This document shows, in pieces, positions 15,452-46,951 of a stretch of 64,000 bases of DNA. The stretch comes from an uncultured Solirubrobacteraceae bacterium. GTDB taxonomy: Bacteria > Actinomycetota > Thermoleophilia > Solirubrobacterales > Solirubrobacteraceae. Under the pieces are notes generated by a model. That model ran no database searches and was not told where the DNA came from. It saw nothing but the letters and a program-made list of their open reading frames with translations. Positions within the stretch are counted from its first letter, which is position 1. Each line of letters starts with the position of its first letter. The stretch covers positions 1 through 64,000 of the forward strand of contig CAZPQW010000006.1 in the NCBI GenBank assembly GCA_964588985.1. Reading direction: 5' to 3'. A program made the translations under genes and the position numbers.

Positions 15452-16018
15452 ATGTCACGTACTATCCGTCTACTGGGGATGACCCTGGTCGCCGTCCTGG
15501 CGTTCAGCGGTGTAGCATCGGCGCACAGCTTCGTCGCAGAAAAAGCCGGTGCTGTAACAAGGGTCAAAAACACAACGCAGGTCTTCAAAACCGGGAGCGG
15601 TCCTGCAGTGGAATGCACCGCAGACGCCGTCAGCAACGCTAACGCTGTGGCAGGGAAACAGTTAACACTGGCGGCTGACGTCAGCTACTCAAGCTGTACC
15701 GTCACGGAGATCTTGAAATTCGAAGCCACTGTGACTACCGCTAAATACACGTTCAACGCCGACGGGACTGCAAACCTAAACAACACGATCGTCATCAAAG
15801 TTCCGATCGCGGGCTGCAACATAACGGTGAAACCGCAGAACACTCTCAAAACGCTCACGTACAAAAACACTGGCAAAAATGTCATTGTGGAACCGAATGT
15901 CTCGGGCATCGTGTCCGAAGGGAGCGGCGGTGAATGCGGTACCGGCGTCACCAACAAAGGCACCTACACTGGTACCACGGAAGTCACATCGTCAGGCAAC
16001 ACCATTTCGTGGGAATAG
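15452..16018 (+). CDS. Small secreted beta-rich protein with 4 Cys (module subunit A1, putative fibre subunit)
   Basis: AAGGAG RBS; Sec signal ending VASA; T/V/N/K/G-rich; no TM anchor. Confidence 0.85.
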   Translation: MSRTIRLLGMTLVAVLAFSGVASAHSFVAEKAGAVTRVKNTTQVFKTGSGPAVECTADAVSNANAVAGKQLTLAADVSYSSCTVTEILKFEATVTTAKYTFNADGTANLNNTIVIKVPIAGCNITVKPQNTLKTLTYKNTGKNVIVEPNVSGIVSEGSGGECGTGVTNKGTYTGTTEVTSSGNTISWE

Positions 16019-16064
16019 CTGCAACGTAGGTAGGCGACGCCAAAGCTAGTCGCCGGTGTTTTAC

Positions 16065-16095
16065 TGCCGAGCGGGCCGCCTGAGCCCGCTCGGCA
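16065..16095 (+). terminator. 12-bp GC hairpin after A1 (partial terminator or mRNA stabiliser)
   Basis: TGCCGAGCGGGC-CGCCTGA-GCCCGCTCGGCA; no U-tract. Confidence 0.6.
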
Positions 16096-16125
16096 TCATC
16101 GCGGAGAACCGACGTTGGGGAGGGA

Positions 16126-18327
16126 ATGGAGCGTATGTTCAAAGTGCATCAACCGGCAACGCGCCGACTAACAGTCGCTTTGGGGCTGGTGGGCGTTATC
16201 GGTGTGATGTCCTATCTGCCCTCGTCGGCGCTGGCTGGGACGTGCGGTAACGAAGGTCTGCGAGCCCAGCAGGGCTCGTCGTTTCTTCCCGAATGCCGTG
16301 CGTATGAGCTCGTGAGCCCTCCCGGCGCAACGGCCTATGTGGCGCCGGGCGGAAGCGTGGATGGAGCCAGGGCCGCGGAAGGGCTCGCGGCGAGCGTTGG
16401 CGAGATCTCGTGGTTCTCCTACTACCCCCCGGCAGGTCTCAGCAATCCGAGCATGCATCTTCTATCGACGCGGACCGCGAGCGGCTGGGGAACGCGAGAC
16501 GTGATTCCTTCCCAGTCGACGTCTTCGGGAGCGTTCATCGAATGCGGCGGGTACACGTATTTCTCCGGAGATCTTGCGACGGAAATCCTCTCGGACGGGC
16601 AGGAACAGTGCCCTCACAACGATCCGCCCTTGACGGAAGACGAACCAGAAGGCTTCGAGAACCTCTTCCTTCGCGACGTTGACTCGGAATCGTACAGTCT
16701 TGTGAACCTGACGCCCGCGAATGAAGCGCCGGCTGACGCCCACCTTCAGGATGCGTCAACAGACTTCTCGCACATCGTATTCTCAGAGAACGCGAAGCTG
16801 ACCCCCTCCGCACCCGCAGGTGACGTCCTCTACGAGTGGGTGGGTGGGAGCGTGCACCTGGTAAGCATTCTTCCGGACGGGACCCCCGTGTCGGGTAGGT
16901 TGGTCGCGGAAGCGTCGCCTTCCAGTTCCTTCCTTGTTGGATTTGCGCCTCTCTTGCACAGCGTGTCGGCCGACGGAAGCCGCGTGATCTTCGAATCGGG
17001 GGGCGACCTGTACGAGCGAGAGAACGCGGAAATGGAACAGAGCCAGCTGAGCCCCGAAGGAGACTGTCTCGAAGCCGACATGGCCTGCACGGTCCAGGTC
17101 GACGCATCTGCTACCGGAGGCCTCGGCGGCGGCGGTCAATTCATAGCCGCGACGGCGCAGGGCACGGACGTCTTCTTCACGGATGGAGGGGTCAAGAAGC
17201 TGACGAGCGACACCGTCCCGAGTAGCGGGCAGAACCTCTACGAGTTCGACCTCGAAACCGGGCAGCTCAGCGATCTGACGCCGTTCGCATCCGCGCACGT
17301 GCTGGGACTCGCCGGACTCGGCGAAGAAGGGAGTGCGTGGCATCTGTACATCGCCGCGGAAGGCGCTTTCGGCGAAGTGAACGCCGAAGGTCACGAACCG
17401 CAGGAAGGCGCACCGAACCTGTATGAGCTCTCCCGGGAATCGTCCGTCGCGTTCCTCGCAACCCTGGCGCCCGGGGACTGGAAAGACTGGCAGGGCGAAA
17501 CACGCGAAGCGGCCGCGGCTCCCAACGGACGCTTCCTGGTGTTCGGCTCCGTCGCGGAATTGACCGGCTACGACAACCGCGATGCGGCAACCGCTCAGCC
17601 GGATTCCGAGCTGTTCGCATACGACGCGGTCGCTCAGCGCCTCGAATGCGTCTCCTGCGGTCCCGCGAATGTGCGGCCGATCGGCGCGACCGGCATCAGT
17701 GCGGTGGAGAGGTCGTCGGTCAACGGATGGGGACCCGGGTATCTCCGTCGCAATGTATTCAACGACGGCAGCGTCGTATTCGATACGCCGAACCCGCTCG
17801 TGGCGGGCGATGCAGACGGCCGCCGCGACGTCTATCTCTACAGCGGCGGCCAGGCGCATCTCATATCCAGCGGTACGAGCGCCGAAAACTCCTACTACTA
17901 CGAAGCGAGCGGATTGAACCCGGTGACCGGGGGCGAAGCCGAAGATGTGTTCTTCGCCACGAGCCAGCATCTGGCCGGAGCGGACGCAGGCAATGGGCCT
18001 GCACTGTATGACGCGCGGGTCGAAGGAGGTCTCTCCGAACCGGCGACGCAGGCGCCGGCATGCTCGGATGAAAGCTGCCGAGGGGGATCCCCAAGCGAGC
18101 CGTCTGCGAGCGCTCCCGCAAGCGCGACTTTTATGGGGCTCGGCAACATCACGCCGACGGTTGAAAAGCCCACGACGAGCCGTAAAAAGCCCAGGAGCTG
18201 CAGGAAGGGCACTGTGCGGCGGCACGGCAAGTGCGTGAAGAAGAAACGGGGACATGCGAAAGGGCGAGCCGGAAAGAGCCGAAAGGCGAGAAAGACGACG
18301 GCGACGGGAAGGGTCTCTCATGTATAG
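16126..18327 (+). CDS. Secreted beta-propeller (TolB/WD40-like) protein with Cys/Lys/Arg tail (B1)
   Basis: Signal peptide, LPECRAYELVSP, repeats ASTDFSHIVF / VSADGSRVIF / APNGRFLVF / FNDGSVVF, tail CRKGTVRRHGKCVKKK. Confidence 0.85.
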   Translation: MERMFKVHQPATRRLTVALGLVGVIGVMSYLPSSALAGTCGNEGLRAQQGSSFLPECRAYELVSPPGATAYVAPGGSVDGARAAEGLAASVGEISWFSYYPPAGLSNPSMHLLSTRTASGWGTRDVIPSQSTSSGAFIECGGYTYFSGDLATEILSDGQEQCPHNDPPLTEDEPEGFENLFLRDVDSESYSLVNLTPANEAPADAHLQDASTDFSHIVFSENAKLTPSAPAGDVLYEWVGGSVHLVSILPDGTPVSGRLVAEASPSSSFLVGFAPLLHSVSADGSRVIFESGGDLYERENAEMEQSQLSPEGDCLEADMACTVQVDASATGGLGGGGQFIAATAQGTDVFFTDGGVKKLTSDTVPSSGQNLYEFDLETGQLSDLTPFASAHVLGLAGLGEEGSAWHLYIAAEGAFGEVNAEGHEPQEGAPNLYELSRESSVAFLATLAPGDWKDWQGETREAAAAPNGRFLVFGSVAELTGYDNRDAATAQPDSELFAYDAVAQRLECVSCGPANVRPIGATGISAVERSSVNGWGPGYLRRNVFNDGSVVFDTPNPLVAGDADGRRDVYLYSGGQAHLISSGTSAENSYYYEASGLNPVTGGEAEDVFFATSQHLAGADAGNGPALYDARVEGGLSEPATQAPACSDESCRGGSPSEPSASAPASATFMGLGNITPTVEKPTTSRKKPRSCRKGTVRRHGKCVKKKRGHAKGRAGKSRKARKTTATGRVSHV

Positions 18328-21300
18328 GAAGGCAGCCGTTGCCCTGATCGTCCTGTTGATGATGGGAGCGCTGGCCGCATCGGCTTCCGCGACCCTGACG
18401 CACCCTCTCGTCTCCAGCTTCACGGGGAGCGAAACTCCAGAAGGGTCGATGTTTCCACTTGAGCTCGCGGTGGACAACTCCTCGAGTGCATCGGCCGGCC
18501 ATGTGTACGTCGGATCGTATGTACCTCGAGTCGTCAACGAGTTCTCGGCTGCAGGCAGCTACCTGTGCCAGATTACGGGTGCGGGCTCTGCGACGACGTC
18601 GCTGAGCGAGTGTGACAGCAGCGGCAGCGGTGTGCCGGAAGGCAGCTTCGGCTCCCCCGAAATTCAACTTGCGGTGACGGTGGATGGGAGCGGCGATTTG
18701 TATGTGGGAAACAGGGAACACCACGCGGTTGACGTGTTCAGTCCCTCGGGGACGTACATATCTGAAATTGCGCTGCCGAAAGAAGGGCAGCCTTCCGCGC
18801 TCGCGGTGGACGCCGCCGGCGACATACTCATAGCCGACTCCAGTAACGGCATCGTGTACAAGTTCGTCCCGGGCGTCGAAAAGCTCGAGATCTTCGCGAC
18901 GGAAGGGCCATCTCACCCACTGGGCTCGGTACAGGGGCTGGCTGGCGATACAGACCCGTCCAGCGCCTCCTACGGCGATGTGTACATGGTGGAAAACGGT
19001 GGCGAAGGCGTGGCCGTGTACGACGCGTCGGGAGAGTACGTCTCATCCATCACCGCTACGTCGAGCGGTCCGTTCGGGGAATCGCCCTACGCGTTGGCGG
19101 TCGATCCGGCCAGTGGCGAGCTGTACGTGGTGATGAGCGGCGGTGTCGACGAGTTTGCGCCTGGCGGCGCATTCCTGTCGCGTATCGAACTGCCGAATCA
19201 AGCGTCGCCGTACGCCGTCGCTGTCAACGGCTCCAGTCACGACGTGTACGTGTCGGCGCTGTTCGCGCGCACGGTGTACGTGCTTGGTCCCGCGGTTGTG
19301 GTGCCCACCGTCACGCCGGCGGCACCGGTGAGCGTGCTGCCCACGAGCGTCACTCTGCACGGTGCCGTGAATCCGGCCGGTGGCGGGGAAGTGACGGAAT
19401 GCGCATTCGAATGGGGTGAAACCCCGTCCTACGGCGAAACGGCCGCGTGCTCTCCGTCGCCGGGATACACGAGCACGACCGAAGTCGACAGCGCGGCGAT
19501 CACAGGTCTCACGCCTGGCACCGCGTATCACTTCAGGATGTCGGCGACGAACGCGAACGGAACCGGATACAGCGCTGACGGGACATTCGAAACGAGCGGC
19601 GCACCGACCCTCGAAGGCGAGACGACGACCGTCGTAGGGCAGACCGATGCCACGGTGCAGGCGGCGCTCGACCCGCACGGTCTGGCGACGACCTACCAGG
19701 TCGAATACGGGTTGTGCGAAGGCACGTGTCCGGCAACCTATGAAGCGACGGTGCCGGTGTCCGGAGCGAGCGCGGGCTCGGGCTTCGCCGCGGCCACGGT
19801 GAGCCAGGAACTCACGGGGCTGCAGCGAAACGCCGAATACCACTACAGGTTCGTCGCGACCAACTCGCAGGGCACGACCGAAGCGTCCGATCAGACCTTC
19901 AGAACAGCCGCGGGCGCCACGGTGGAAAACCGGTCCGCGACGGCCGGCCCTCACGGTGCTGAAATCGTTGGGAGCATCGATCCGGCCGGCGAAGCCGTGA
20001 GCTGTCGTCTGCAGTACGTGAGCGAAGCGGAATTCAAAGCCTCGCAATACGCGCACGCGCAGAGCTTGCCGTGCACGCCCGGCGAACTTGCCGCAAACAC
20101 GGGGGCCCGGACCGTCCACGTGAAGGTGGTGGGGCTCGCCATCGACTCGGTGTACGACTACCGCTTCCTCGTCACGGGCGCATCCGGCGAAGCGACGGGG
20201 CCGGAAGGCTCGGTGGCGACGTTCGGCATCGACGCGTTCGCCTTTGAAATGCAGGATGGCGCTGGAAGCCCGTACACGGAAGCGGGTGGGCACCCGGACA
20301 GCATGGTCACCAACATCGTCCTCGATCAGACCGACGAAGGCGGCCAGTTCACGCCGAGCGGCAACGTCAAGGACGTGCGCGTCGAACTGCCGGCGGGGAT
20401 CGTCGGGAACCCCTCGGCGACGGCGACGTGCACGAGACGCGAATCGGAAGCGAAGGAATGCAGCGGCGCGGCTCAGATCGGGACGCTGATAGTCCAGGCG
20501 GCGACCGAGGGAGAACTCAGGGCGCCGCTATTCAATCTGGCGCCGCCGAAGGGCGTGGCGGCGGAGCTCGGGGCGCGGTTCAACAACTTCGCCAACGCGT
20601 ACATCGAAGCGAGGGTGCGTACCGGCGGCGACTACGGGATCGACGCGGAAAGCCTGAACATCACGAATCTGGCCGGCGTTCAACAGGTCACCGTCAGGGT
20701 CTGGGGCGTGCCGAGTGCAAGAGACCACGACGGAGAACGAGCCTGTCCGGGCCCGGAACACAGCTATGAAGTTCCGTGCGCCACACCGGAACGCGGGCCG
20801 GCGAAGCCGTTCCTGACCGCGCCCGGCTACTGCCCGGGCACGGCCCTGCAGGCGACCGTGTTCGCCGACGCCTATCAGCAGCCGGGCGAATACGTGACGG
20901 GTCACGCCGAAGCGCCCGCGATGGAAGGCTGCGAAAAGCTGCGCTTCTCCCCGAGCGTCTCGATCGCCCCGAAAACCGGCAGTGCGGACTCTCCGACCGG
21001 GCTCGACGTGGGGCTGCACGTGCCGCAGGAAGAAGGCGTCAACGGCTTGGCGGAGGCAAACGTACGAAACGTGAGCGTCACATTGCCCGCGGGCCAGAGT
21101 GTCAATCCGGCGGCGGCCGGCGGCCTGGCGAGCTGCTCGGAAACAGAGATCGAACTGCACGGCCCTCAGCCGGCAGGGTGCCCTGAAGCGTCGAAGATCG
21201 GGTCGGTGGAACTGGAAACCCCGCTCTTCCCGCACCGTGTCTTCAGGGGCGGCGTGTACGTGGCGACGCAGACCGAAAACCCGTTCGGGTCGCTGTTGGC

Positions 21301-22894
21301 GATCTACGTGGCGATCCACGAACCGGAAACGGGTGTGGTGGTCAAGCTCGCCGGGCACGTCGAACTCGGAGAACCGCTCGTGAGCAACGGCCTGCTGCCC
21401 GGGCAGATCAGGACGACCTTCGAAAACAATCCGCAGCTCCCGTTCGAAGATCTGCGGCTCAGCTTCTTCGGCGGGCCGCGCGCGGCTCTGGTGACTCCGC
21501 CGACGTGCGGGTCGTATACGAGCAGCGCCTCGCTGACGCCCTGGTCGAGCAGCGTGCCCACCGAAAAGAGCTCGACGTTTCAGATCACGAGCGGACCCGG
21601 CGGATCGGCGTGCGCCGCGCCTGGGTTCGCCCCGTCGTTCACCGCTGGAACGCCCAACAACCAGGCCGGAGGCTACTCGCCGTTCAGCGTGACGATCTCC
21701 CGCCAGGATGGCGAAGATACGCTGGGGCGCGTGAGCGTCAAGACTCCGCCGGGGCTGTTGGGGATGCTGAGGAGCGTCGTCCGCTGCCCCGAACGGCAGG
21801 CCGGCAAAGGCGAATGCGGCCCGGAAAGCGAAATCGGCGGAGCGACCGTGGCGGTCGGCGCGGGAGCGGATCCGTACTGGGTGAAGGGCGGCAAGGTCTA
21901 CCTCACCGATGCATATGGCGGCGGTCCGTTCGGCCTGTCGATCGTGGTGCCCACGACAGCCGGTCCGTTCACGCTCGCTGGAAATGGCGGGCCTGGAAAG
22001 GAGGTCGTGCGCGCGGCGATCGAGGTTGACCCGACCACGGCGCAGATAACGGTCGTGAGTGATCAGCTACCGAGCATCTTGGAGGGCGTTCCGCTGCAGA
22101 TCAGGACGGTGAACGTCACGATCGACCGGCCGAACTTCATGTTCAACCCCACTAACTGCAGCAAACTGCAGGTCAACGGCGGCCTCGTGAGCAGCACCGG
22201 CACGACCGCGTCGGTCTCCTCGTCGTTCACGGCCGCAAACTGCTCGCGCCTTCCGTTCAAGCCGAGGTTCTCGGCGTCCACGCAGGGCAAGGCGAGCAAA
22301 GCGAGCGGGGCGTCCCTGCACGTCAAAGTGACCTCGGGGGCCGGACAGGCGAACATCGCGAAAGTCAAGGTCGACCTGCCGATCCAGCTGCCCTCGAGGC
22401 TCTCGACGCTTCAGAAAGCGTGCGTGGACGCCGTCTTCAAAGCGAACCCGGCGTCATGTCCGGCAGCCTCGGCGGTGGGCAGGGCGACGGCGGTAACGCC
22501 GGTGCTCGCGCACCCGCTGACTGGCCCGGCGTACCTGGTGTCCCACGCCGGGGCGGCGTTCCCGGACCTGGAGATCGTCCTGCAGGGCGAAGGGATCACG
22601 CTGATCCTCGACGGCAACACGAAGATCAAGAACGGGGTCACGTCGAGCATCTTCAAGGCGGTGCCGGATGCGCCGATCTCGAGCTTCGACATGGTGTTGC
22701 CGGAGGGCCCGCACTCGGTGTTGGCGACCAACCTGCCCGCAAGGTCGAAGTACAACCTGTGCGGACGGACTCTGAACATGCCGACCGTGATCACGGGCCA
22801 AAACGGGGCGGTCGTCAAACAGAACACCAAGATCCTCGCCACCGGCTGCCCTACCAAGCACAAGAAGGCCAAGGCGGGGCGCGCAAAGAGCTGA
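18320..22894 (+). CDS. Large secreted protein: NHL propeller, 3 FN3-like domains and four-fold Cys-repeat domain (C1)
   Basis: Signal MYRKAAVALIVLLMMGALAASASA; LAVD..G..YV NHL repeats; GLTPGTAYHFR, GLQRNAEYHYR and GLAIDSVYDYR FN3 signatures; start overlaps the end of B1. Confidence 0.88.
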   Translation: MYRKAAVALIVLLMMGALAASASATLTHPLVSSFTGSETPEGSMFPLELAVDNSSSASAGHVYVGSYVPRVVNEFSAAGSYLCQITGAGSATTSLSECDSSGSGVPEGSFGSPEIQLAVTVDGSGDLYVGNREHHAVDVFSPSGTYISEIALPKEGQPSALAVDAAGDILIADSSNGIVYKFVPGVEKLEIFATEGPSHPLGSVQGLAGDTDPSSASYGDVYMVENGGEGVAVYDASGEYVSSITATSSGPFGESPYALAVDPASGELYVVMSGGVDEFAPGGAFLSRIELPNQASPYAVAVNGSSHDVYVSALFARTVYVLGPAVVVPTVTPAAPVSVLPTSVTLHGAVNPAGGGEVTECAFEWGETPSYGETAACSPSPGYTSTTEVDSAAITGLTPGTAYHFRMSATNANGTGYSADGTFETSGAPTLEGETTTVVGQTDATVQAALDPHGLATTYQVEYGLCEGTCPATYEATVPVSGASAGSGFAAATVSQELTGLQRNAEYHYRFVATNSQGTTEASDQTFRTAAGATVENRSATAGPHGAEIVGSIDPAGEAVSCRLQYVSEAEFKASQYAHAQSLPCTPGELAANTGARTVHVKVVGLAIDSVYDYRFLVTGASGEATGPEGSVATFGIDAFAFEMQDGAGSPYTEAGGHPDSMVTNIVLDQTDEGGQFTPSGNVKDVRVELPAGIVGNPSATATCTRRESEAKECSGAAQIGTLIVQAATEGELRAPLFNLAPPKGVAAELGARFNNFANAYIEARVRTGGDYGIDAESLNITNLAGVQQVTVRVWGVPSARDHDGERACPGPEHSYEVPCATPERGPAKPFLTAPGYCPGTALQATVFADAYQQPGEYVTGHAEAPAMEGCEKLRFSPSVSIAPKTGSADSPTGLDVGLHVPQEEGVNGLAEANVRNVSVTLPAGQSVNPAAAGGLASCSETEIELHGPQPAGCPEASKIGSVELETPLFPHRVFRGGVYVATQTENPFGSLLAIYVAIHEPETGVVVKLAGHVELGEPLVSNGLLPGQIRTTFENNPQLPFEDLRLSFFGGPRAALVTPPTCGSYTSSASLTPWSSSVPTEKSSTFQITSGPGGSACAAPGFAPSFTAGTPNNQAGGYSPFSVTISRQDGEDTLGRVSVKTPPGLLGMLRSVVRCPERQAGKGECGPESEIGGATVAVGAGADPYWVKGGKVYLTDAYGGGPFGLSIVVPTTAGPFTLAGNGGPGKEVVRAAIEVDPTTAQITVVSDQLPSILEGVPLQIRTVNVTIDRPNFMFNPTNCSKLQVNGGLVSSTGTTASVSSSFTAANCSRLPFKPRFSASTQGKASKASGASLHVKVTSGAGQANIAKVKVDLPIQLPSRLSTLQKACVDAVFKANPASCPAASAVGRATAVTPVLAHPLTGPAYLVSHAGAAFPDLEIVLQGEGITLILDGNTKIKNGVTSSIFKAVPDAPISSFDMVLPEGPHSVLATNLPARSKYNLCGRTLNMPTVITGQNGAVVKQNTKILATGCPTKHKKAKAGRAKS

Positions 22895-30391: not shown

Positions 30392-30961
30392 GTGCTAGGA
30401 GGCAATGTGGCAGGAGGACAGAGTCACTTACTTCGTCGTGCGCGCAAATACAGTGCGCTGGTTGGAGTGTTGATTGTGGCTGGGGTGGCTGGGTGTGGGG
30501 GCAATTCCTCTAACAGCACATCAGCCACTTCGGCAGCGGTTGCAACGACATCCAGTTCGACTGAAGCTACGCCGGCCCCGACTCATGCTTCGCTGTCTCC
30601 GATGGCCTCTGCCGCTGAGAAGATCTGTGGACGGCTCAATGCGAGGCTCGATGCGGAACCCAAAACGCTCAATGGGTTCGGAGCAGTGCCGGGTGCTCTC
30701 AGTCGCCGTGCTCGTGTCGAGAACGCTGCGCTGATCGAGCTCGCCACGCTTAAGCCGCCGGATGAAATCGCTAATGCCTGGGCGCAGATCCTCCGGTATC
30801 GACAGGCTCTCAAGCGAAATCTCTTGGATCTCGTCAAAAAAGCTCGCCGTAATGAGTTCAGCACGATGAACTCAGTGTATGCCGCAAATGTAAGCGTTGA
30901 ACGCAAATTGCTCGGGGTGAAGCTGGGAGCTAACTTTGAACCCTGCTTGCGGGTCGGCTGA
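30392..30961 (+). CDS. Predicted lipoprotein with S/T linker and helical domain (start may be GTG 30407)
   Basis: RRARK, hydrophobic stretch and VAGC lipobox; two Cys in the helical domain. Confidence 0.7.
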   Translation: MLGGNVAGGQSHLLRRARKYSALVGVLIVAGVAGCGGNSSNSTSATSAAVATTSSSTEATPAPTHASLSPMASAAEKICGRLNARLDAEPKTLNGFGAVPGALSRRARVENAALIELATLKPPDEIANAWAQILRYRQALKRNLLDLVKKARRNEFSTMNSVYAANVSVERKLLGVKLGANFEPCLRVG

Positions 30962-31261: not shown

Positions 31262-31921
31262 ATGAAACGGATAAGAATCCTGGGGCTCACGGTGATCGCA
31301 GTATTTGCGACATCTGCCTTGGCGTCCTCGGTGGCTTCCGCCGCAGAATGGTTAGACAATGGAAAACCAATTACGAACCCAATATTAGTCTTATTGAAAG
31401 GAACCGGAGCGACTGGGCAGCTTGAACTCTCCGATTTAGCTGCTACCGGCGGCGCGACGGCCATCGTGTGTGAAAGCAAAGGCGACGGAACGATCGGGCC
31501 TGGAGCAAATGACACGATCAAAACAATAGCGGCACCAACCTGTAGCTTCGTAGCCGGGAAAAACGGATCTTGCGAAGCTAGCAAACCTGTTACTGCGACG
31601 CCGGTGAACCTGCCGTGGGCAACTCGACTCTTAACAGTTAATGGCGAGGTCCGGGACATGATCGAAAACTCGGGCCCCGGTGCTCCTGGCTGGCAAGTTG
31701 AATGCACAGTAGCGGGAATTTTCAAAGTGCAAGACAAATGTACTTCCGAAACAGGAGACCCGTTAATTGATAATAACCCTAGCGGCAACGATGTAATCGC
31801 ATTATTCGAAGCCTCCGAAACCGCTACCTGTAGTCTGGGCAATAGCACCTCAGGAATGGTAGTCGGTGCGGCCTTAGTCTTCTCTGACGTGCCCGGGTTA
31901 AAACTCTCGGTTGATCCGTAG
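31262..31921 (+). CDS. Small secreted beta-rich protein with 6 Cys (module subunit A2)
   Basis: AGGAG RBS; signal MKRIRILGLTVIAVFATSALASSVASA; close paralog of 40508..41149. Confidence 0.88.
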   Translation: MKRIRILGLTVIAVFATSALASSVASAAEWLDNGKPITNPILVLLKGTGATGQLELSDLAATGGATAIVCESKGDGTIGPGANDTIKTIAAPTCSFVAGKNGSCEASKPVTATPVNLPWATRLLTVNGEVRDMIENSGPGAPGWQVECTVAGIFKVQDKCTSETGDPLIDNNPSGNDVIALFEASETATCSLGNSTSGMVVGAALVFSDVPGLKLSVDP

Positions 31922-31951
31922 GCCAATAGACGTTTAGTTTGACGGCATGGT

Positions 31952-31979
31952 CGTGGGGCCGCTTGTTTGGGGCCCCACG
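31952..31979 (+). terminator. GC hairpin after A2
   Basis: CGTGGGGCC-N10-GGCCCCACG. Confidence 0.5.
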
Positions 31980-32210
31980 GCACGATGCACACTATCAGCA
32001 ATATCGAAAACTATGGCAATCGATATGCGCATATCCGGAAACGTGGCAATAAGGGTGTGATTGCACTCCTAAAAAAGAGTCGGAGACGCCTCTAGCATCT
32101 AGTTCTAGCGAAAGATATAAGTTATGAGATAGTGCCCTGCTAGCAGGCTGCCAGTAGGTGATGTTGTATCCACTGCCATGACTCGGGGAGATGATAAGTT
32201 GGAGGAGATT

Positions 32211-35200
32211 GTGCGATACGCAAAGCGTCCGACTCTGTGGTGTGTCGTGGCGTGTGTAGGTGCTTGTGTCGTGCTTGCGTTTGCGGCTGCTCCAGCATTT
32301 GCTGGCCGCAGCAAGCTCTCCCCGATTACCGAAGCCAACAGCAGGCCGTTCGGTGGACTGAGCTCGCTAGGGGTCGCAGGTGTCGCGGTCGATGACTCCG
32401 ATAATCTATGGATCGGGGAAACGGGAGGGCAGGTGATTGACGAGGTCAGTTCCTCCGGTGCCTTCGTTGGCGAAAGTACCGGCTCGTGGAGCGGCCTGTA
32501 CCCACAGACCGTTGCTTTCTCCGACGCCTCAAAACATCTTTATTTTACAGATTTCTTCAGCGGCGATATTTGGGGCTTGGAACCGAGCGGAGCTTATGCC
32601 GGCATCGATCTGACGGGTCCGTGGAGCGCGGGGTACCTCACTGTCGGGATCGCAGCTGATAACTCCAGCGGTCCGACCGGCGGAGATCTCTACCTCGCTG
32701 GCGAAGGCAGTTCGGTATATCGTATCGACGGTGCGGGTGGGGAAGTGCCCTTTTCCGCTAGCGAGCCATACATCGGCGGCAACCGGCTCACCGGCTTTGC
32801 GCCTGGCGAATCCTTCTACGCGCCGGTGGCTATCGCGGTCGCTTCTACCGGCGACTTCTATGTTGTTGATGCGGGTAGGGACGCAGTTTATGAGTTCAGT
32901 TCGTCCGGTGAATTCCTGCGGTCTTTCGCCGAAGCGGAAAATGGGCCCTTCGGCTCGGTCTCAGCTATCGCGGTCGACCCAACTAACGGTCATGTCCTCG
33001 TCGCAGACCAGGCTAACGGCTTTATAGACGAGTTTGACTCGACTGGAACCTATCTGGACAACCTCGAAGAAGTGAGCGGGCCCACGAGCCTTGCCGTTGA
33101 CTCCTCAGGCAAGCTATATGTCACAGAAAGCGCCGGAAATCAGATTGGAGTGTATGGGCCTTACAGTGCGCCGTTGCACCTACCCAAGATCGAAGGTCGC
33201 GCGGTCTCAAGCGTCGCCTCGACGTCCGCAACACTCAATGCAAGTGTCAAGCCAAAGGGTGGGGGTGAAGTCAGTGAATGTCGCTTTGAATACGGCAGTA
33301 GCGAAAGCTATGGCCAGAGTGTGCCGTGCGCTCCCGCCACATTTTCAAGCACGAGTGCCGTGTCAGCACAGTTGAGGGGGCTGCTGCCCGACAGGACGTA
33401 TCACTATCGTCTACGCGTCGTAGACACGTCGACCGGGTTTGCCGGATTGTCTGGGCTCGACCATGTCTTCGCAACAAACCCTGCCGCAGCTGGTTCGCCG
33501 ACTGCTGGTTGCTCCAATCCGGCCCGTACGGGTCCGTCTGTACGGCTTCCCGATTGCCGTGGCTATGAGCTTCTGACGCCGGCGGATAAGGGTGACGCTG
33601 AAGATATGTTCGGAGACACTGGCGAACAGTCGGTAAATGGTGGCAGTTATGAGGTTGGTTACCCGGATGAAAATCCGCTTGCGGAAGGTGGAAAGTTTTT
33701 TCTTAGCACGACTGCCGCTTTTGGTCCCGGCGCGACTGGCGGGCAGAATGGGTACGTGTTTTCACGTGATGCCGGTGGTTGGCAGCAGGATTCGCTTGCC
33801 GCTCCGATTCCGGGGGTTCAGAGCGTTGATGTTGAATCGCTCTTTAGTCCGAACTTTTCCCATGTCGCGAGCCTTCCGAAGCTCGGGTCGAATGCGAATG
33901 CGGGAGCAAAACAGTCTATGGGCCTTGTCGGCTTGCTCGGGGGCCCGTACGACACCATTTTTGAAGGCAACGAAGGGACTTTCACGGGTGCTTCGACAGA
34001 TTTCACGCGTGTCTTTTTCCAATCGGCAGATCATAGCTTCGCGGCTCCCGCGGGAGAACAGCTTGTGGGCAGTAAAGCTGTGTACGAATATTCTGGTGGG
34101 CGTTATACGCTTATCAACGTTGATGACGAAGGTAAGCTACTAAATGAATGTGGAGCTGTATCGCCAGCGGAAAACACGCAGATAGTCGGGGTCTACAGTC
34201 ATGCGGTGTCGGCGGACGGATCGCGCGTGTTCTTTTTGAGTCCCGACCCAACGGATCTTAGCTGCTTCCACGAAAGAGAAGAAGGGTTTACTGGTTCTCC
34301 TCCGCAGTTGTTTGTTCGTATGGGCCGGCGTACGGTTGAGATGTCGGCGCCAGTAGCAGGGGTGGTTGATCCAGCGGGACCGCAACCCGTGGCGTTTGCT
34401 GGTGCGGCTGCAGATGGTTCGCGTGTGTTCTTTATTACTCGCGAGGAGTTGACGGCCGACGATGCGGGTAATCATGCGCCTGAGTTGTATGAATACGATT
34501 TTGCAACGGAAGGATTGACGCGTATTTCACGCGGTGCTTCGAAGAGTGGCGTCGGTAATGTGAGTTGGGTTGTCCCAGCGGCGAGTGGGGCAGCGATCTA
34601 CTATACGACGGCTAATGGGCACCTGTATCGGTATGACACTCATACGGGGACTACGACGTACATCACGACGGTAAGCGGCGGCGACTGGAATGAAACGAAT
34701 GCGAGTGGCTATAAGACGCTAAATGTCCACCAGCCGTTGAATGTGCGTTCGTCGTGGGAGGCGACTCCGGATGGCCGGTTCTTGTTGTTTATTGCGAGGG
34801 AGAACGTGACGGGTTATGACTCCGCCGGACACAGTGAGGTTTATAGGTTTGACGCTGTGACGGGTGGCTTGTTGTGCATATCGTGTAATCCAGACGGGTC
34901 TGCGCCGTCTGCGGATGCGCAGTTTGATCGTACGACGCGCAATCGTGAGGTGCGGGGCATCTCGGACGACGGGGCTTTTGTATTTTTTGATACTCCTGAA
35001 TCCTTGGTGCCCGCTGATACGAATGGACGGTTGGATGTGTATGAGTGGCACGAAGGCGGCTTGTCGTTGATTAGTTCAGGTCAAGATGCAAGTAACTCAT
35101 ATTTCCTTGGTACTGATCCGTCGGGTGGTGATGTGTTTTTTGGTACTCATGCGCGCTTGGCTCCGCAGGATGTCGATGGCGCGGGAGATCTCTACGACGC

Positions 35201-35468
35201 GCGTATTAATGGTGGTTTTCCGGTGGTGCAGGGCGCGATGGGCTGTGAAGGCGATGGCTGCCGGAACCCTTCGCCAACGTCGTCTGGAGCGTCTGGTGAA
35301 GCAGGCCCGCTGTCGTTCTCGTTCACAGGCCCAGGGAATTGGGTTGCCCCAAAACCCCCTGCGGGGACTCAATGCAAAAAAGGCGTCAAGAAGCACGGTA
35401 AGTGCGTGAGAGTTCGGAAGAAGCGGGTGCGGGCTAGGAAAGCCGGCCACAACGGGAGGGCACGTTGA
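32211..35468 (+). CDS. Secreted NHL + FN3 + beta-propeller protein with Cys/Lys/Arg tail (B2; ORF open from 32178)
   Basis: GGAGG before GTG 32211; NHL repeats, GLLPDRTYHYR, LPDCRGYELLTP, VSADGSRVFF, tail CKKGVKKHGKCVR. Confidence 0.87.
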   Translation: MRYAKRPTLWCVVACVGACVVLAFAAAPAFAGRSKLSPITEANSRPFGGLSSLGVAGVAVDDSDNLWIGETGGQVIDEVSSSGAFVGESTGSWSGLYPQTVAFSDASKHLYFTDFFSGDIWGLEPSGAYAGIDLTGPWSAGYLTVGIAADNSSGPTGGDLYLAGEGSSVYRIDGAGGEVPFSASEPYIGGNRLTGFAPGESFYAPVAIAVASTGDFYVVDAGRDAVYEFSSSGEFLRSFAEAENGPFGSVSAIAVDPTNGHVLVADQANGFIDEFDSTGTYLDNLEEVSGPTSLAVDSSGKLYVTESAGNQIGVYGPYSAPLHLPKIEGRAVSSVASTSATLNASVKPKGGGEVSECRFEYGSSESYGQSVPCAPATFSSTSAVSAQLRGLLPDRTYHYRLRVVDTSTGFAGLSGLDHVFATNPAAAGSPTAGCSNPARTGPSVRLPDCRGYELLTPADKGDAEDMFGDTGEQSVNGGSYEVGYPDENPLAEGGKFFLSTTAAFGPGATGGQNGYVFSRDAGGWQQDSLAAPIPGVQSVDVESLFSPNFSHVASLPKLGSNANAGAKQSMGLVGLLGGPYDTIFEGNEGTFTGASTDFTRVFFQSADHSFAAPAGEQLVGSKAVYEYSGGRYTLINVDDEGKLLNECGAVSPAENTQIVGVYSHAVSADGSRVFFLSPDPTDLSCFHEREEGFTGSPPQLFVRMGRRTVEMSAPVAGVVDPAGPQPVAFAGAAADGSRVFFITREELTADDAGNHAPELYEYDFATEGLTRISRGASKSGVGNVSWVVPAASGAAIYYTTANGHLYRYDTHTGTTTYITTVSGGDWNETNASGYKTLNVHQPLNVRSSWEATPDGRFLLFIARENVTGYDSAGHSEVYRFDAVTGGLLCISCNPDGSAPSADAQFDRTTRNREVRGISDDGAFVFFDTPESLVPADTNGRLDVYEWHEGGLSLISSGQDASNSYFLGTDPSGGDVFFGTHARLAPQDVDGAGDLYDARINGGFPVVQGAMGCEGDGCRNPSPTSSGASGEAGPLSFSFTGPGNWVAPKPPAGTQCKKGVKKHGKCVRVRKKRVRARKAGHNGRAR

Positions 35469-38400
35469 TGAGGGTTCCTGCACGTTTGATGCTGGCTGTG
35501 GCCGTTGCGGTAGCTGGGTTTGGGGTGTTTTGTGTGCCAGGAGCACTTGCTGTGCAGGCTGGGGCGCAGTGGACAGTGACCGCAGTCTCCCTTCCGACGA
35601 ACTTCCCTCCGAATGCTTTGACGAGTGGCGCGAATGAGTATCGAGTGGTGGTCATCAATACGGGTGACACGCCAAGCAGCGGCACCGTGACGATCACGGA
35701 CGCGCTCCCGGCGGGTGTGTCTTTGGATCCGTTGGGTGCATCGGGAACGGAGCAGATCAGCGGTGCCCCGTTGAGCTGCTCGGGCCTTGAATGCACGTAC
35801 TCCGAACCTGTGCAGCCTGGTGATGCCTTGCAGGTCACGATCCCGGTTGATACGGGCGCGGCAGGTGTGGTTGAAAACCTAGTCACGGTGTCGGGTGGTG
35901 CGCCGGAAGTGTCTCAGACGACGCCGACTGTGATTGGGGTGCCAGCTCGATTTGGTGTTGCCCCTGGGTCGGCGCATACAACGCTTTCGAGCTTGCAGGC
36001 TGGTGCGCATGCGGATTTGACAAGCACGCTTGCGTTCAGCACGATCAACGACGAAGGGATCCTCGCTGGAGACCCTAAGGACACGACGTTCAACCTGCCC
36101 GCTGGGTTTGCCGGGGATGTGGTGGATGTGCCTGCGTGTGCAGTGTCGTATTTCGCGGCGCATAATGAATGCCCGATCGATACGCAGGTTGGTAGTGTGA
36201 CGCTATTTGTTGAAGCAGGGAACAACAGTGGTCGGATTAGTACCTCTCCGGTTTATAACCTTGCGGCGAGTCCGGGGGCGGTTGCAAAGCTAGGGTTCTT
36301 CGCGGGCCGGACCCTGGATATTCAGGGCAACGTGTTCGTGCGCCCTGGCGCGAACGGTCTTGAGCACCTGGAAACGACGTTCGAAAACATCGACGAGTCG
36401 CTCGCCGAGCTCGACAGCGTGGTTCTCACGATCTGGGGTGTCCCGAACGATCCGGCTCACAACGCTGTTCGAGGCTTGAACTGCCTAGCGGCGGGGAACT
36501 GCTTTCAGGTCAATGGTGGGATCCCGGACGGATTGTTGACTCCGTTTCTGACGAACCCCACGAGCTGCTCTGGGGCACCCCTGCATTCGGAATTCAAAGT
36601 CGACTCATGGCAGCATCCGAGCGAAGGCCCGCCTCCAACCCTGATGCAGTTCGGCACTCTCACGGGCTGCGAACAGCTAACGATGACGCCGAGCTTGATC
36701 GTCGAACCGTCCAACACATCCGCCTACTCCCCGACCGGGCTCAAGGTTGGCCTGGAAGTACCCCAGACCTTCGAAAACCCGTACGGCCTCGCGACCTCGC
36801 ACCTGAAGGACGCGGTCATCACGCTGCCCGAAGGGATGACTTTGAACCCATCGGCCGCTGCCGGCCTCGGCTCCTGTACCGAAGCGCAGGTCGAAGCAGA
36901 GACCGCCGCGTCGCTCCAGGACGAAGGCTGCCCGAACGCCTCGAAAATCGGCACCGTGCATGTCAAGAGCCCCGCGATCTCCGAGGAAGCGACCGGCTCC
37001 GTCTACGTAGCCACGCCATTCGCGAATCGCTTCGACTCGCTGCTCGCGCTGTACGTCGTGGCGAAGATCCCCGACCGCGGCATCGTCGTCCGCCTGGCGG
37101 GCAAGGTGGAACCGAACCCGCTGACAGGGCAGCTCACGACCACGTTCGACGAAAACCCACAGCTGCCGTTCAGCGACTTCACACTCAGTTTCAACCAGGG
37201 CGCCGGTGCGCCTCTGGTGACCCCCGCGACCTGCGGGGAATACACCACGAGCGGTGAAATGAGCCCGTGGTCGGAACCGAGCGCGTTCAGTCTGGTCTCC
37301 TCGGTCTTCTCGATCACGAGCGGCATCGGTGGGGCGCCCTGTCCGGCTGGTGCGGCGGCGTTTGCTCCGCAGCTCGTAGCAGGCACGCTCAACAACGTCG
37401 CCGGCTCCTACAGCCCGTTCGATCTCCACATCACGCGTGGCGATGGAGAACAGGAGATCACGGGCATCTCCGCGCAGCTGCCGCCGGGCCTGTCCGCGAA
37501 CCTGACGGGCGTCCCGTTCTGCCCCGAAGCGGACATTGCGCTTGCGCGGACCAAGACCGGTGCACAGGAGGAAGTCGAACCCTCGTGTCCGGCCGCGAGC
37601 CAGATCGGACACAGTCTCGCGGGCGCCGGCGTGGGATCGCAGCTGGTCTACGCGCCCGGCAAGCTCTACATGGCCGGGCCGTTCGAAGGCGCGCCGTTCT
37701 CGATCGTGTCGATCACCTCGGCGAAGGTCGGGCCGTATGACCTCGGCACGGTCGTCCTGCACCTGCCGCTGCAGATCAACCCCACGACAGCGATCGTGAC
37801 GGTCGGCGCCGGCAGCGCCGACCAGATACCGCACATAATCAAAGGAATCGTCATCCATCTGCGAGACATCCGCGTCTACGTGGATCGATCGAACTTCACG
37901 CTCAACCCAACCAGCTGCAACCCGATGAGCTTGACGGCCAGCGTCATCGGTTCGGGCCAGAGCTTCACCAGCTCAGCCGACGACGGAGCCGTGAGCGTGA
38001 GCAACCACTACCAGGCATCTGACTGCGCGAACCTGGCGTTCAAACCGAGCTTCAAGCTCTCCATCCCGGCAAGGGCCTCGAAAGTCGCCGGCATGGGGCT
38101 CACGACGAAGCTCACCTTCCCGGCCGGCACGCAGGGCACACAGGCGAACGTGAGGTACGTCAAAGTGGTCCTGCCGCGGGCGTTGCCTTCGCGCTTCTCT
38201 ACTTTGCAGAAAGCGTGCCTTGCCGGCGTCTTCGACGCCAATCCGGCAGCATGCCCGGCCGGCTCTGTCGTCGGCCACGCTCGTGCCGTCACGCCGATCC
38301 TGCCCGTTCCATTGACGGGACCGGCGTATTTCGTCTCACATGGTGGAGCGAAGTTCCCCGAACTCGTCCTCGTGCTCCAGGGCTACGGCGTCACGATCGA

Positions 38401-38764
38401 GCTGCACGGCGAAACAAACATAAAATCGGGGGTCACCAGCTCGACCTTCCGCACGGTGCCCGACCAGCCCGTCAGCAGCTTCGAACTGACGCTGCCGCAG
38501 GGCAAGGACTCAGCTCTGGCAGCCTTCCTGCCAGCCAAGGACAAAGGCGACTTCTGCGGCCAGAAGCTCACGGCCCCGACCAACATCATCGGGCAGAACG
38601 GCCTCGAAATCCGTCAGAGCACACCGATCACGGTCACCGGATGCTCCGGTAAGGCGCAGAAGCTCGCGGCGGCGCTCAAAGCGTGCCGGAAGAAGGCGCG
38701 GGCCAAGCGTGGGTCATGCGCCAGGGCAGCCCGCAGGAGGTATGGCTCCTCGAAGAAGGGTTAG
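35468..38764 (+). CDS. Large secreted protein: DUF11-like Ig domain and four-fold Cys-repeat domain (C2)
   Basis: TGATG overlap with B2; YRVVVINTG..VTITDALPAG; long colinear similarity to C1 (LPSR.STLQKAC, LTGPAY.VSH); tail KLAAALKACRKK. Confidence 0.88.
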   Translation: MRVPARLMLAVAVAVAGFGVFCVPGALAVQAGAQWTVTAVSLPTNFPPNALTSGANEYRVVVINTGDTPSSGTVTITDALPAGVSLDPLGASGTEQISGAPLSCSGLECTYSEPVQPGDALQVTIPVDTGAAGVVENLVTVSGGAPEVSQTTPTVIGVPARFGVAPGSAHTTLSSLQAGAHADLTSTLAFSTINDEGILAGDPKDTTFNLPAGFAGDVVDVPACAVSYFAAHNECPIDTQVGSVTLFVEAGNNSGRISTSPVYNLAASPGAVAKLGFFAGRTLDIQGNVFVRPGANGLEHLETTFENIDESLAELDSVVLTIWGVPNDPAHNAVRGLNCLAAGNCFQVNGGIPDGLLTPFLTNPTSCSGAPLHSEFKVDSWQHPSEGPPPTLMQFGTLTGCEQLTMTPSLIVEPSNTSAYSPTGLKVGLEVPQTFENPYGLATSHLKDAVITLPEGMTLNPSAAAGLGSCTEAQVEAETAASLQDEGCPNASKIGTVHVKSPAISEEATGSVYVATPFANRFDSLLALYVVAKIPDRGIVVRLAGKVEPNPLTGQLTTTFDENPQLPFSDFTLSFNQGAGAPLVTPATCGEYTTSGEMSPWSEPSAFSLVSSVFSITSGIGGAPCPAGAAAFAPQLVAGTLNNVAGSYSPFDLHITRGDGEQEITGISAQLPPGLSANLTGVPFCPEADIALARTKTGAQEEVEPSCPAASQIGHSLAGAGVGSQLVYAPGKLYMAGPFEGAPFSIVSITSAKVGPYDLGTVVLHLPLQINPTTAIVTVGAGSADQIPHIIKGIVIHLRDIRVYVDRSNFTLNPTSCNPMSLTASVIGSGQSFTSSADDGAVSVSNHYQASDCANLAFKPSFKLSIPARASKVAGMGLTTKLTFPAGTQGTQANVRYVKVVLPRALPSRFSTLQKACLAGVFDANPAACPAGSVVGHARAVTPILPVPLTGPAYFVSHGGAKFPELVLVLQGYGVTIELHGETNIKSGVTSSTFRTVPDQPVSSFELTLPQGKDSALAAFLPAKDKGDFCGQKLTAPTNIIGQNGLEIRQSTPITVTGCSGKAQKLAAALKACRKKARAKRGSCARAARRRYGSSKKG

Positions 38765-38768
38765 CAAG

Positions 38769-38783
38769 CTAGCCGCGTTGCAT
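38769..38783 (-). pseudogene. Four-codon stub (MQRG-stop) of a probable mazF/pemK toxin gene
   Basis: TGATG overlap with the upstream gene's MazE-like C-terminus; MazF-family proteins often start M(R/Q)RG. Confidence 0.45.
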
Positions 38784-39601
38784 CAGGGAGCGAGACCGTC
38801 GTCTGTCGCGGGCTCCCACGACGTGGCATCGCCGGAGGACTCCCAGGCATCCCAAGCATCCTCGTAGGCGCCGCCCAGCTCTGTTGCTCGCAGATCGCGG
38901 ATCAGCAGTCTGTACGCCAGCTCGGCACGACGCATCGCGTCGGCGTTCTGCACACTGGGGGTCGATAGGCGCAGACGCTGCTCGGCGACACGCAGCCACC
39001 TACGCTCGCTCTTGCGTAGGGAGGTCGCCATCTCGCGAGGATCCTCGATGAGCGACAGCAGCCGCAGGAGATCCTCGCGCTGCGATTCCGGGTCGCTGTG
39101 GACCATCAGGGATCTGGCCTTGATGAGCACCGCCCCGAGCAATGTCGGCCTGCGCAGCTCGAACGAAGATCCCTCGACAGTCACGGTGACCACCTCCGAT
39201 CGAGCGAGGGCCTGAGAGCCGCCTGGCGCGCTGATGGCTTTGAGTCCGGACCGGAGAATCGGCGGCGGCTGGATGCCATCCGGCGCCAGTACGTCGACGA
39301 TCAGCCCGTCGCGCTCGTAACGATGGGCATAGCCGTCCAGGTCTGGCGCCACGAGCTCGAAGCCCGCGTCGCGGAGCCCCGCGTCGATGGCGGCAAGTGC
39401 ACCCTGAGGGCGCGCTTGACCGAGCACGTCGATGTCGCCGGTAATCCGCACGTTGCCGACGCCGTGCTCGAGGGCATGCAACTGCACCATCAGGCCACCG
39501 ATGAGCACCCACTCGGCCGGGAGTCGTCTGGAGAGCTCGCCGACGGCTGCCCATAGCTCCAGGGCCGCTCGATCGTCGATGGCAATGTCGATCTCACTCA
39601 T
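38783..39601 (-). CDS. AbiEii/MenT-like nucleotidyltransferase with MazE-like C-terminal extension
   Basis: WVLIGGLMVQLHA..RITGDIDV pol-beta NTase motif; coupled to the upstream HTH gene. Confidence 0.7.
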   Translation of the reverse strand: MSEIDIAIDDRAALELWAAVGELSRRLPAEWVLIGGLMVQLHALEHGVGNVRITGDIDVLGQARPQGALAAIDAGLRDAGFELVAPDLDGYAHRYERDGLIVDVLAPDGIQPPPILRSGLKAISAPGGSQALARSEVVTVTVEGSSFELRRPTLLGAVLIKARSLMVHSDPESQREDLLRLLSLIEDPREMATSLRKSERRWLRVAEQRLRLSTPSVQNADAMRRAELAYRLLIRDLRATELGGAYEDAWDAWESSGDATSWEPATDDGLAP

Positions 39602-40284
39602 GGCTCAAGAGCGCGCGCGGCCTCACGGCGCGCGCGCGGCTCGTCGCTCTCGAGCAGGTCCACCAGGATCGCGGCGTGCGGCGCGCGGTGACTACCACGG
39701 CTATCCAATCGCAGCCAGATGTCGTCGGACACCCAGCGGATGCGAACCGGCCCCGTCCCCGGCAAGAGAGCGTGCTCGTCGACGATGAGGTTGCGATGGC
39801 TGGCCGGCGCATACACCTCCACTTCCGATGTCGGGCCGAGGACACCCACCACGTCGCCGGCTGAGATGCCGGTGGCCAGCACGTCTGGCCGGCCGAGGAT
39901 TCGTCTCAGCTCCGACGGATGGACATCGAATTCCTCCATCTCAGCGCGGGCTCGAAGTCGCGGCGCATAGTCCCGCAAGGGGTGCTCACGCAACCAGGCG
40001 CGCATACGTTGGGAGTAGCGCTCCCGGCCGGCCATCTCCTCGGCCGCGGTGTCCTCCCCGGATGCCAGCAGGAGGACAGCCCAAGCCATCGCCTGTGACA
40101 GGGGCCGTCCGCCACCGGGTCGCTGTCGGGCCAGTCGTTCCACGGCCCGCTCGTCCAGCCACCAGCTGCGCCCGCGCTTGACTGCGGGCAGGCGTCCCGA
40201 GGCGATGTGCTGGCGCACAGCGACCGGGCCGACTCCGAGCCGGTCGGCGGCCTCACGGACGCTGAGGAGCGAAGGATCAGGCAC
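39598..40284 (-). CDS. Excisionase-type HTH protein, AbiEi-like putative antitoxin
   Basis: LLSVREAADRLGV..VRQHIASGRLPAVKRGRSW; C-terminal ILVDLLE; leaderless GTG 6 nt after TAGGAT; ATGA overlap with the NTase. Confidence 0.72.
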   Translation of the reverse strand: MPDPSLLSVREAADRLGVGPVAVRQHIASGRLPAVKRGRSWWLDERAVERLARQRPGGGRPLSQAMAWAVLLLASGEDTAAEEMAGRERYSQRMRAWLREHPLRDYAPRLRARAEMEEFDVHPSELRRILGRPDVLATGISAGDVVGVLGPTSEVEVYAPASHRNLIVDEHALLPGTGPVRIRWVSDDIWLRLDSRGSHRAPHAAILVDLLESDEPRARREAARALEP

Positions 40285-45810: not shown

Positions 45811-45835
45811 TGGGGCGCAGCACAGAAAGAGCTCG

Positions 45836-46927: not shown

Positions 46928-46951
46928 GGGGTACGGCATGAGGGGCACGAG

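Follow-up and report, generated by a model that had tools for sequence, protein, structure and literature searches.

A repeated pair of propeller-like and Ig-like-domain proteins with an exchangeable small secreted partner: a candidate surface-display cassette in Solirubrobacteraceae

The closest described counterparts of the three-gene secreted cassette considered here, which occupies positions 15452-22894 of a 64,000-nucleotide stretch (the window) from an uncultured Solirubrobacteraceae bacterium (assembly GCA_964588985.1, contig CAZPQW010000006.1, positions 1 to 64,000), are compact gene sets for surface fibres. The Csc/WxL (Elr) pilus of Enterococcus and the Lactobacillales is presented as a Gram-positive cassette that occurs in several copies and encodes large accessory proteins besides a small subunit made in abundance; WxL has an incomplete immunoglobulin (Ig) fold that polymerises through a donor strand at its N-terminus, with a membrane-anchored DUF916 chaperone and sortase anchoring, and on variable N-terminal payloads the subunit domain reappears at the C-terminus as an attachment module (bioRxiv 10.64898/2026.10.17.759780). 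The three-gene L-ENA cluster of Bacillus paranthracis is reported as a self-contained unit that encodes a subunit with disulfides, an anchor protein and, for the tip, a trimeric BclA-like protein; ENA are spore structures in which heptameric rings are stacked, with an anchor in the exosporium (PMC11362473). The Tat-fimbriae of the archaeon Haloarcula hispanica are built without sortase or usher from the products of a single operon, namely a major subunit, a tip, an adapter and an anchor, and are Tat-exported and of the donor-strand type (PMC11821415).

The cassette encodes a small secreted protein (A), a propeller-like protein (B) and a large protein with four Ig-like domains (C). Based on this comparison it would work most like the WxL/Elr cassette, in its many copies, small subunit, large accessory proteins and reuse of the subunit domain for attachment, and like the L-ENA cluster, in its self-contained three genes, disulfide-containing subunit and anchor; the trimeric tip protein of L-ENA recalls the collagen-like proteins that occupy the A slot in other operons. 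The Tat-fimbriae are similar in their one-operon layout. Unlike the WxL pilus, the small protein of this operon (A1) is modelled as a closed barrel, and B and C carry basic tails and no transmembrane segment. The genome contains no match to WxL (PF13731, for which a Lactococcus control was positive) or to DUF916 (PF06030), and as tests for WxL, DUF916 and sorting signals did not show them to be its features, the cassette falls outside both the WxL and the sortase systems. Unlike L-ENA, its proteins are Sec-exported, the collagen-like gene replaces A and does not stand alongside it, and no sequence or fold link was found. The Tat-fimbriae differ from it in their archaeal host, Tat export and donor-strand build; no dedicated peptidase gene was seen with the cassette. 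The genome has a single sortase gene, on a contig (C13) that holds no B or C gene. An earlier note on this DNA had seen no sortase in the window, and a Pfam scan of the 26 other open reading frames (ORFs) there agrees; no usher or chaperone gene was seen among the window ORFs scanned, a genome-wide usher search not having been made. No paper on the cassette was found in the open-access literature, whose supplements could still hold gene lists. Its composition appears to be new, and its function is read here from sequence and models.

The constant part of the cassette is the B-C pair. The genome that holds the window, which is 96% complete, contains full cores of B (11) and of C (12), with a small secreted Cys-containing protein directly 5' of 11/11 B genes and C directly 3' of 10/11; in most of these operons the stop codon of B and the start codon of C overlap or adjoin. 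Two further sets of loci were compared, namely 75 loci selected on C, all of them metagenome-assembled, and 140 regions of 30 same-genus genomes picked from the best B matches (140 of 144 merged regions, from 146 of the best 150 matches listed); operons of the two sets may overlap, and related genomes are not independent. Among the 75 loci, C followed B in 84 of 87 cases and B preceded a full C in 72 of 76, while an A-type gene preceded 29/79 B genes by profile and another 11 at weaker scores. Among the 140 regions the corresponding counts were 140/141 for C after B and 42/141 for an A-type gene before B. Because of these linkage counts, B-C is regarded as the core and A as a frequent, co-inherited and exchangeable partner. 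The earlier note had proposed a multi-gene secreted module without sortase signals, with a hairpin placed for an excess of A. This description holds, as does co-location in other genomes where B and C are concerned; A proved not to be obligatory, an A-type gene standing before roughly a third to a half of B genes.

What precedes B differs among genomes, from an A-type gene upstream of 18/18 operons in one to 0/14 and 0/13 in others. A secreted collagen-like gene preceded 20/141 B genes of the 140 regions, and in the 2.5 kb upstream of B, examined for 140 genes, an A-type gene was found in 43 cases, a collagen-like gene in 21 and both in none. Trees of 74 triplets correlated at r 0.69 for A-B, 0.72 for A-C and 0.88 for B-C; 0/500 permutations reached the A-B or A-C values, although co-duplication alone could explain them. 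In one genus of soil actinobacteria the cassette is present in some 10-20 copies per genome, or more. Matches to C occurred in 54/61 genomes drawn from the order and in 5/401 drawn from the phylum, with two candidates scored per genome, and all 5 lay within the order; 74/75 of the loci with C are assigned to Solirubrobacterales or Solirubrobacteraceae and 1/75 to Actinobacteria only. A-type profiles matched 30/36 genomes of the genus and 0/24 in other families, where divergence may mask them.

The collagen-like proteins form an unnamed secreted family with a conserved N-terminal motif, a Gly-X-Y stretch and a two-Cys C-terminal domain; in at least 10 genomes, genes for them stand ahead of B or behind C (L231:2097-2936, L183:2432-3211 and 28 more ORFs). 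The family was not found in the genome with the window, and the one member scanned had no Pfam match. The commonest neighbour of B-C, in 19 genomes, is a regulator with a TetR-N and a C-terminal helix-turn-helix (HTH) domain (L264:9931-10965, with 136 related ORFs, of which some come from regions that overlap). It lies within 2.5 kb upstream of 53/140 B genes and has seven copies in the genome, one of them just 3' of a C gene on contig C23.

In the first operon, B1 (16126-18327, + strand) consists of a signal peptide, a propeller-like core of about 620 residues (16234-18105), a Cys-stapled linker and a polybasic tail, and has no passenger domain. Its repeats, together with weak matches to TolB (E 0.13-0.67), the only matches of B in the PDB, make B look like a TolB-type propeller. 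The likeliest start of C1 is the ATG at 18320, which gives 1524 amino acids and an 8-nucleotide overlap with the B1 stop and is also the start of the Atlas record. The N-terminal part of C1 (18320-20218, + strand) is a variable passenger region with a signal peptide, an NHL-repeat propeller and three FN3-like domains. The core (20219-22858, + strand) is made up of four homologous, disulfide-stapled Ig-like domains of CnaA/YcnI/cohesin-like type at about 20219-20929, 20939-21613, 21617-22249 and 22253-22849 (HHalign 82-99%; model pLDDT 92.1, pTM 0.81), after which C1 ends with a short Lys-rich tail and its stop codon (22859-22894, + strand). The fold search placed each C domain in the class of the CnaA/DEv-IgG domains of MSCRAMMs, sortase pilins and antigen I/II and of cohesins, with YcnI, ACE/Cna and sortase pilins nearest (Z 6-10; YcnI Z 9.8, root-mean-square deviation (rmsd) 2.6 over 118; ACE19 Z 8.6, rmsd 3.6 over 134). 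These Z values would lie in the common-fold range, and Foldseek returned tandem-Ig adhesins at low TM-scores. Unlike MSCRAMM and pilin CnaA domains, those of C are four fixed, position-specific and disulfide-stapled units without a wall-sorting signal, at 4-15% identity. A PDB sequence search with the C profile gave no match, and neither the B nor the C core matched a Pfam or NCBIfam family.

A basic C-terminal tail was present in 216/216 B and 211/216 C proteins and in 0/74 A-type proteins of the operons; elsewhere it was found in 1/276 A-type proteins of the database and in 35/231 other secreted-like ORFs of the genome, a set chosen heuristically. The tails of B and C, which the earlier note had missed, would bind anionic wall polymers. 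C-terminal transmembrane segments were seen in 0/216 B, 0/216 C and 1/74 A-type proteins and LPxTG-like strings in 0, 4 and 1, respectively, in agreement with the earlier note, whose statement that the proteins lack a lipobox or type IV prepilin site is also borne out, by eye, for the six proteins of the window's two operons. Covariation between B and C in 216 pairs placed 22 of the 30 top pairs in C domain 1, which is a lead only (top z 9.8 against up to 7.0 with shuffled pairing; nine columns, with relatedness uncontrolled). An apparent B-C fusion (L099) was rejected, as the B basic tail and the C signal peptide are both kept inside it.

A1 (15452-16018, + strand; 188 amino acids, signal peptide 15452-15523) has four Cys and no basic tail, and its 164-residue mature part is predicted to be a closed eight-stranded beta-barrel. 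The AlphaFold2 model, built on 129 sequences, has a pLDDT of 96.4 and a pTM of 0.90 and shows eight long strands with short N- and C-terminal ones. The best fold matches belong to closed barrels of eight strands, namely OmpA (Z 10.4, rmsd 2.8, 123 aligned), NspA (9.9), OmpW (9.7) and BcnB (Z 8.7, rmsd 3.3 over 133, 13% identity), values that reflect a common shape and not kinship. Thr, Glu, Lys, Ser or Asn occupy alternate strand positions in the 129 A1-type sequences, inward and outward facing having been assigned from the alternation, and the outward hydrophobic belt of the transmembrane barrels OmpA and OmpW is not found among them. Because these alternate positions are polar, A1 is taken to be a soluble barrel. 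Inward positions are hydrophobic, a Phe is conserved at the barrel mouth, and the loop between strands 3 and 4 has a conserved, exposed Phe-Gly tip. Strand registers suggest disulfides 31-58 and 98-138 (mature numbering), each inside one half of the chain. The mature N-terminus (15524-15526 in A1) is often His, in 53% of the 129 sequences; a copper His-brace within one chain is unlikely because A1 has no second His.

The earlier note had seen a loose likeness to Csu and spore-coat-U pilins in the GTYTGTTEVT segment near the end of A1. This likeness is not supported, as A1 is modelled as a complete closed barrel and not as an incomplete Ig pilin, and the segment forms barrel strand 8, after which one more short lid strand follows. 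The 50 fold matches listed for A1 include no chain of Csu, TasA, a bundling pilin or ENA, though lower-ranked ones may exist. Pfam and NCBIfam gave no match on A, the PDB gave none to the A1-type profile, Foldseek with A1 gave none at E 0.001 in the PDB and viral libraries, and none of the A1-type proteins scanned (16 members, E up to 1) carried the YceI Pfam signature. The soluble eight-stranded YceI/Bcn barrels and PraA/PraB resemble A1 in being small secreted proteins and in modelled barrel shape; unlike YceI/Bcn, the A1-type family has no Pfam match, and we know of no YceI/Bcn-type carrier in a propeller-plus-Ig operon. The Atlas points from A to a cluster with PraA_PraB annotated on 13% of its members (score 0.88), a lead only.

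The A1-type family has 1907 representatives at E 0.001 and no family name. Profiles built on mature sequences only identify 17 A1-type, 13 long-type, 2 A2-type and 4 unassigned genes in the genome; a single A family of 35 members was rejected, since the profile iteration behind it had included signal peptides, and one false hit was removed. The signal between A1-type and long-type proteins is weak (28/60 above the shuffled 99th percentile; HHalign 21%). For A1 and the corresponding protein of the second operon, A2, which the earlier note had put under one letter, homology between their types lacks support (HHalign probability 1%; held-out score 8.1 bits, 2/200 shuffles higher). A search of plasmids with A2 found nothing. 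A-type domains occur as tandems of two to four with short linkers, fused at either terminus, after S1 proteases, before Ig-like domains and joined to other A subfamilies. A long-type domain ends four passenger proteins of the genome in place of a basic tail, the passengers being NHL plus FN3, RCC1, a glycine-rich region plus FN3, and an unnamed domain. A further unnamed secreted family (L146:10144-11181) precedes A in 13/140 operons, and in the genome it also occurs fused to an A-type domain (G000:C16:22933-24444).

In the complex test with four A1 copies and a custom alignment, A1 passed with 0.73 against 0.02 for the best control; the pass mark was reached by 20/30 solved dimers and 1/23 solved monomers, benchmark counts that apply here only roughly. 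The runs agreed in at least 87% of contacts, with a partner pLDDT of at least 74. The interface is symmetric between two chains, with strand 4 pairing with partner strand 3 and strand 8 with partner strand 1, so that the model suggests a reciprocal swap of strands 1-3 about a hinge at residues 61-65, which would fit the proposed disulfide layout. A1 is thus predicted to bind itself, and the model supports such binding without demonstrating it. The earlier idea that A assembles by strand exchange is supported by the model in that strands are exchanged, but these are three N-terminal strands in a closed dimer, and the open chain through a terminal donor strand was not obtained. A complete monomer without a self-assembly interface had been named as fatal to the idea; A1 is modelled as a complete barrel, and a self-interface is predicted.

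The GC-rich hairpin 3' of A1 (16065-16095, + strand), which had also been reported earlier, was recovered (z -3.0; 0/200 shuffles as stable). It has no U-tract and could be an mRNA-stabilising or attenuating element, and its position would favour an excess of A. By eye, a long stem lies 3' of the small gene in 11/11 operons of the genome; scored against shuffles, a z of -2.5 or below was reached in only 5/11. A promoter and terminator scan gave nothing exceeding chance.

Perhaps the cassette encodes a wall-tethered B-C platform that holds a self-associating A or a collagen-like trimer and bears swappable passenger domains, a reading with about an even chance of being correct. The B propeller and the four Ig-like domains of C would be made in equal amounts, exported by Sec and paired with each other, and B and C probably grip the anionic cell wall by their positively charged tails. 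The small upstream protein, which has no anchor of its own and would be in excess, could be kept at the surface by self-association and by docking to its cognate B-C pair, on which the A barrel probably builds a surface structure. The slot would be filled by a collagen-like trimer in some operons and by a barrel of the A1 kind in others. Passengers on B, C and A-type domains include NHL, FN3, DUF11, RCC1 and proteases, and as these are exchangeable, the many paralogous operons would display variable binding modules. The A product could be a coat, short oligomers or a long fibre. In its furthest form this proposal describes a new kind of fibre, in which barrels polymerise by an open-ended swap of their three N-terminal strands, each half presumably disulfide-stapled, a propeller/four-Ig heterodimer with polybasic tails nucleates them and tethers them to the wall, A fusions with passengers are incorporated along its length and the collagen-like trimer is an alternative shaft; we consider this unlikely. 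Although none of its three core families has a name or, by sequence, a solved relative, the cassette is amplified in a soil actinobacterial genus. If the platform reading is true, monoderm bacteria could display variable proteins without sortase, usher or chaperone, and a barrel could serve as a building block of surface structures. The cassette also supplies testable parts, namely a 164-residue, easily expressed protein, a defined hinge and two alternative partners per platform.

Several observations weigh against the platform reading. The top A1-A1 contacts (75-52, 73-55 and 154-13) pair residues in the same registers as strands within the monomer do, and the swap may therefore be an artefact of chain assignment. 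The Gly of the hinge turn, kept in 117/129 A1-type members, is missing in A1 itself (one of 12/129), and the complex model reports a closed two-chain interface and no filament contact. No half-barrel caps or circular permutants were found in B, C or elsewhere. The A-type proteins make up at least three weakly related subfamilies, neither an A-type nor a collagen-like gene lies within 2.5 kb upstream in 76/140 operons, and in a genus of another family an A-type gene upstream of B-C was detectable in 0/12 pairs. In addition, A1 is a complete barrel with the shape of a lipid carrier, as the BcnB match indicates. A could instead be secreted to carry hydrophobic molecules, in the manner of YceI/Bcn or PraA and possibly as a dimer, with B-C as a surface receptor or adhesin working with it and no polymer formed. 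The closed barrel with hydrophobic inside, polar outside and a conserved Phe at its mouth would suit this role, as would the PraA_PraB lead and the position of 11/17 A1-type genes of the genome, which are not directly 5' of a B gene; an alkane-solubilising role is reported for PraA/PraB (PMC4542665). We regard a carrier as somewhat unlikely, as no uptake transporter is consistently linked (no transporter family recurs beside B-C, bar one ABC ATPase cluster in 5 genomes) and as both the collagen-like occupant of the slot and the A-type domains that replace the basic tails of passengers would be left unexplained.

Alternatively, B-C could be a self-sufficient two-chain adhesin and the small upstream genes could encode co-regulated matrix or surface-active proteins without contact to it. 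A recognised small partner is missing in over half of the operons, some genomes have no A-type gene in cis (the 0/14 and 0/13 above) and many A-type genes are orphans; however, A subfamilies follow B/C clades, one genome has A before all 18 of its operons, and orphan A genes could work in trans, which makes this reading quite unlikely. The proposal of the earlier note, read as a pilus of the Csu, TasA or WxL kind whose subunit A has an unfinished Ig fold that a terminal donor strand completes, draws on the operon layout and hairpin, on the strand exchange in the complex model and on the existence of a Gram-positive donor-strand pilus (bioRxiv 10.64898/2026.10.17.759780). It is very unlikely given the confident closed-barrel model of A1 with barrels as best matches, a genome without WxL or DUF916 chaperone, and A-type domains that are fused at either terminus and in tandem. 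That B or C is a secreted enzyme with A as an accessory factor is extremely improbable. A few polar residues are conserved in B (Arg, Glu and Trp near the N-terminus), but the conserved columns of B and C are mostly Gly, Pro, Cys and aromatic, no enzyme signature was seen on either in Pfam, NCBIfam or these columns, and TolB remains the only PDB match of B while C has none.

The six genes of the two operons lie where the earlier note had placed them, including the repeat of the A-B-C order at 31262-38764 with homologous B cores (tblastn E 4.5e-34) and C cores (tblastn E 2e-153). A2 (31262-31921, + strand) is a small secreted Cys-rich beta protein of a subfamily separate from A1, followed by a GC-rich hairpin at 31950-31981 (+ strand; z -2.4, 3/200 shuffles equally stable). 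B2 (32178-35468, + strand) carries an NHL propeller and FN3 passenger, then the B core and a polybasic tail, so that the NHL-plus-FN3 passenger sits on C in the first operon and on B in the second. C2 (35468-38764, + strand), whose start overlaps the B2 stop, has a DUF11-like passenger, the four-domain core and a polybasic tail. An orphan paralogue of A2 with 68% identity, overlooked in the earlier note, lies at 40508-41149 (+ strand). Between C2 and this paralogue, at 38783-40284 on the minus strand, an HTH_17 protein and a second ORF, presumably nucleotidyltransferase-like and without a Pfam match, lie within an island of low GC and look like a type IV toxin-antitoxin pair or a mobile one. 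The stretch of the second operon has 55-57% GC in surroundings of about 70%, and the low-GC ORF upstream of A2 at 30392-30961 resembles a small lipoprotein and has no Pfam match. The first operon is flanked by an ftsZ-like gene, identified by translation, on one side and by glycine-cleavage genes on the other.

Elsewhere in the genome, a recent, near-identical duplication of A and B is present (G000:C8:34015-37483 and 45066-48534), the first copy having no C after it. C-type domains also occur outside the cassette, in families without a full B, from single-domain proteins to one of 2412 amino acids with about ten repeats (examples at L141:190-7428 and G000:C18:61293-61985). A basic, apparently Ig-like C-terminal domain is found on many unrelated secreted proteins (contigs C1, C7, C13, C21, C22, C28 and others) and is possibly a general wall-attachment module of the lineage. 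Within the window, a secreted subtilase-family protease at 53626-56001 combines a PKD domain with a charged repeat and, at the C-terminus, a basic domain, and coincides with a dip in GC.

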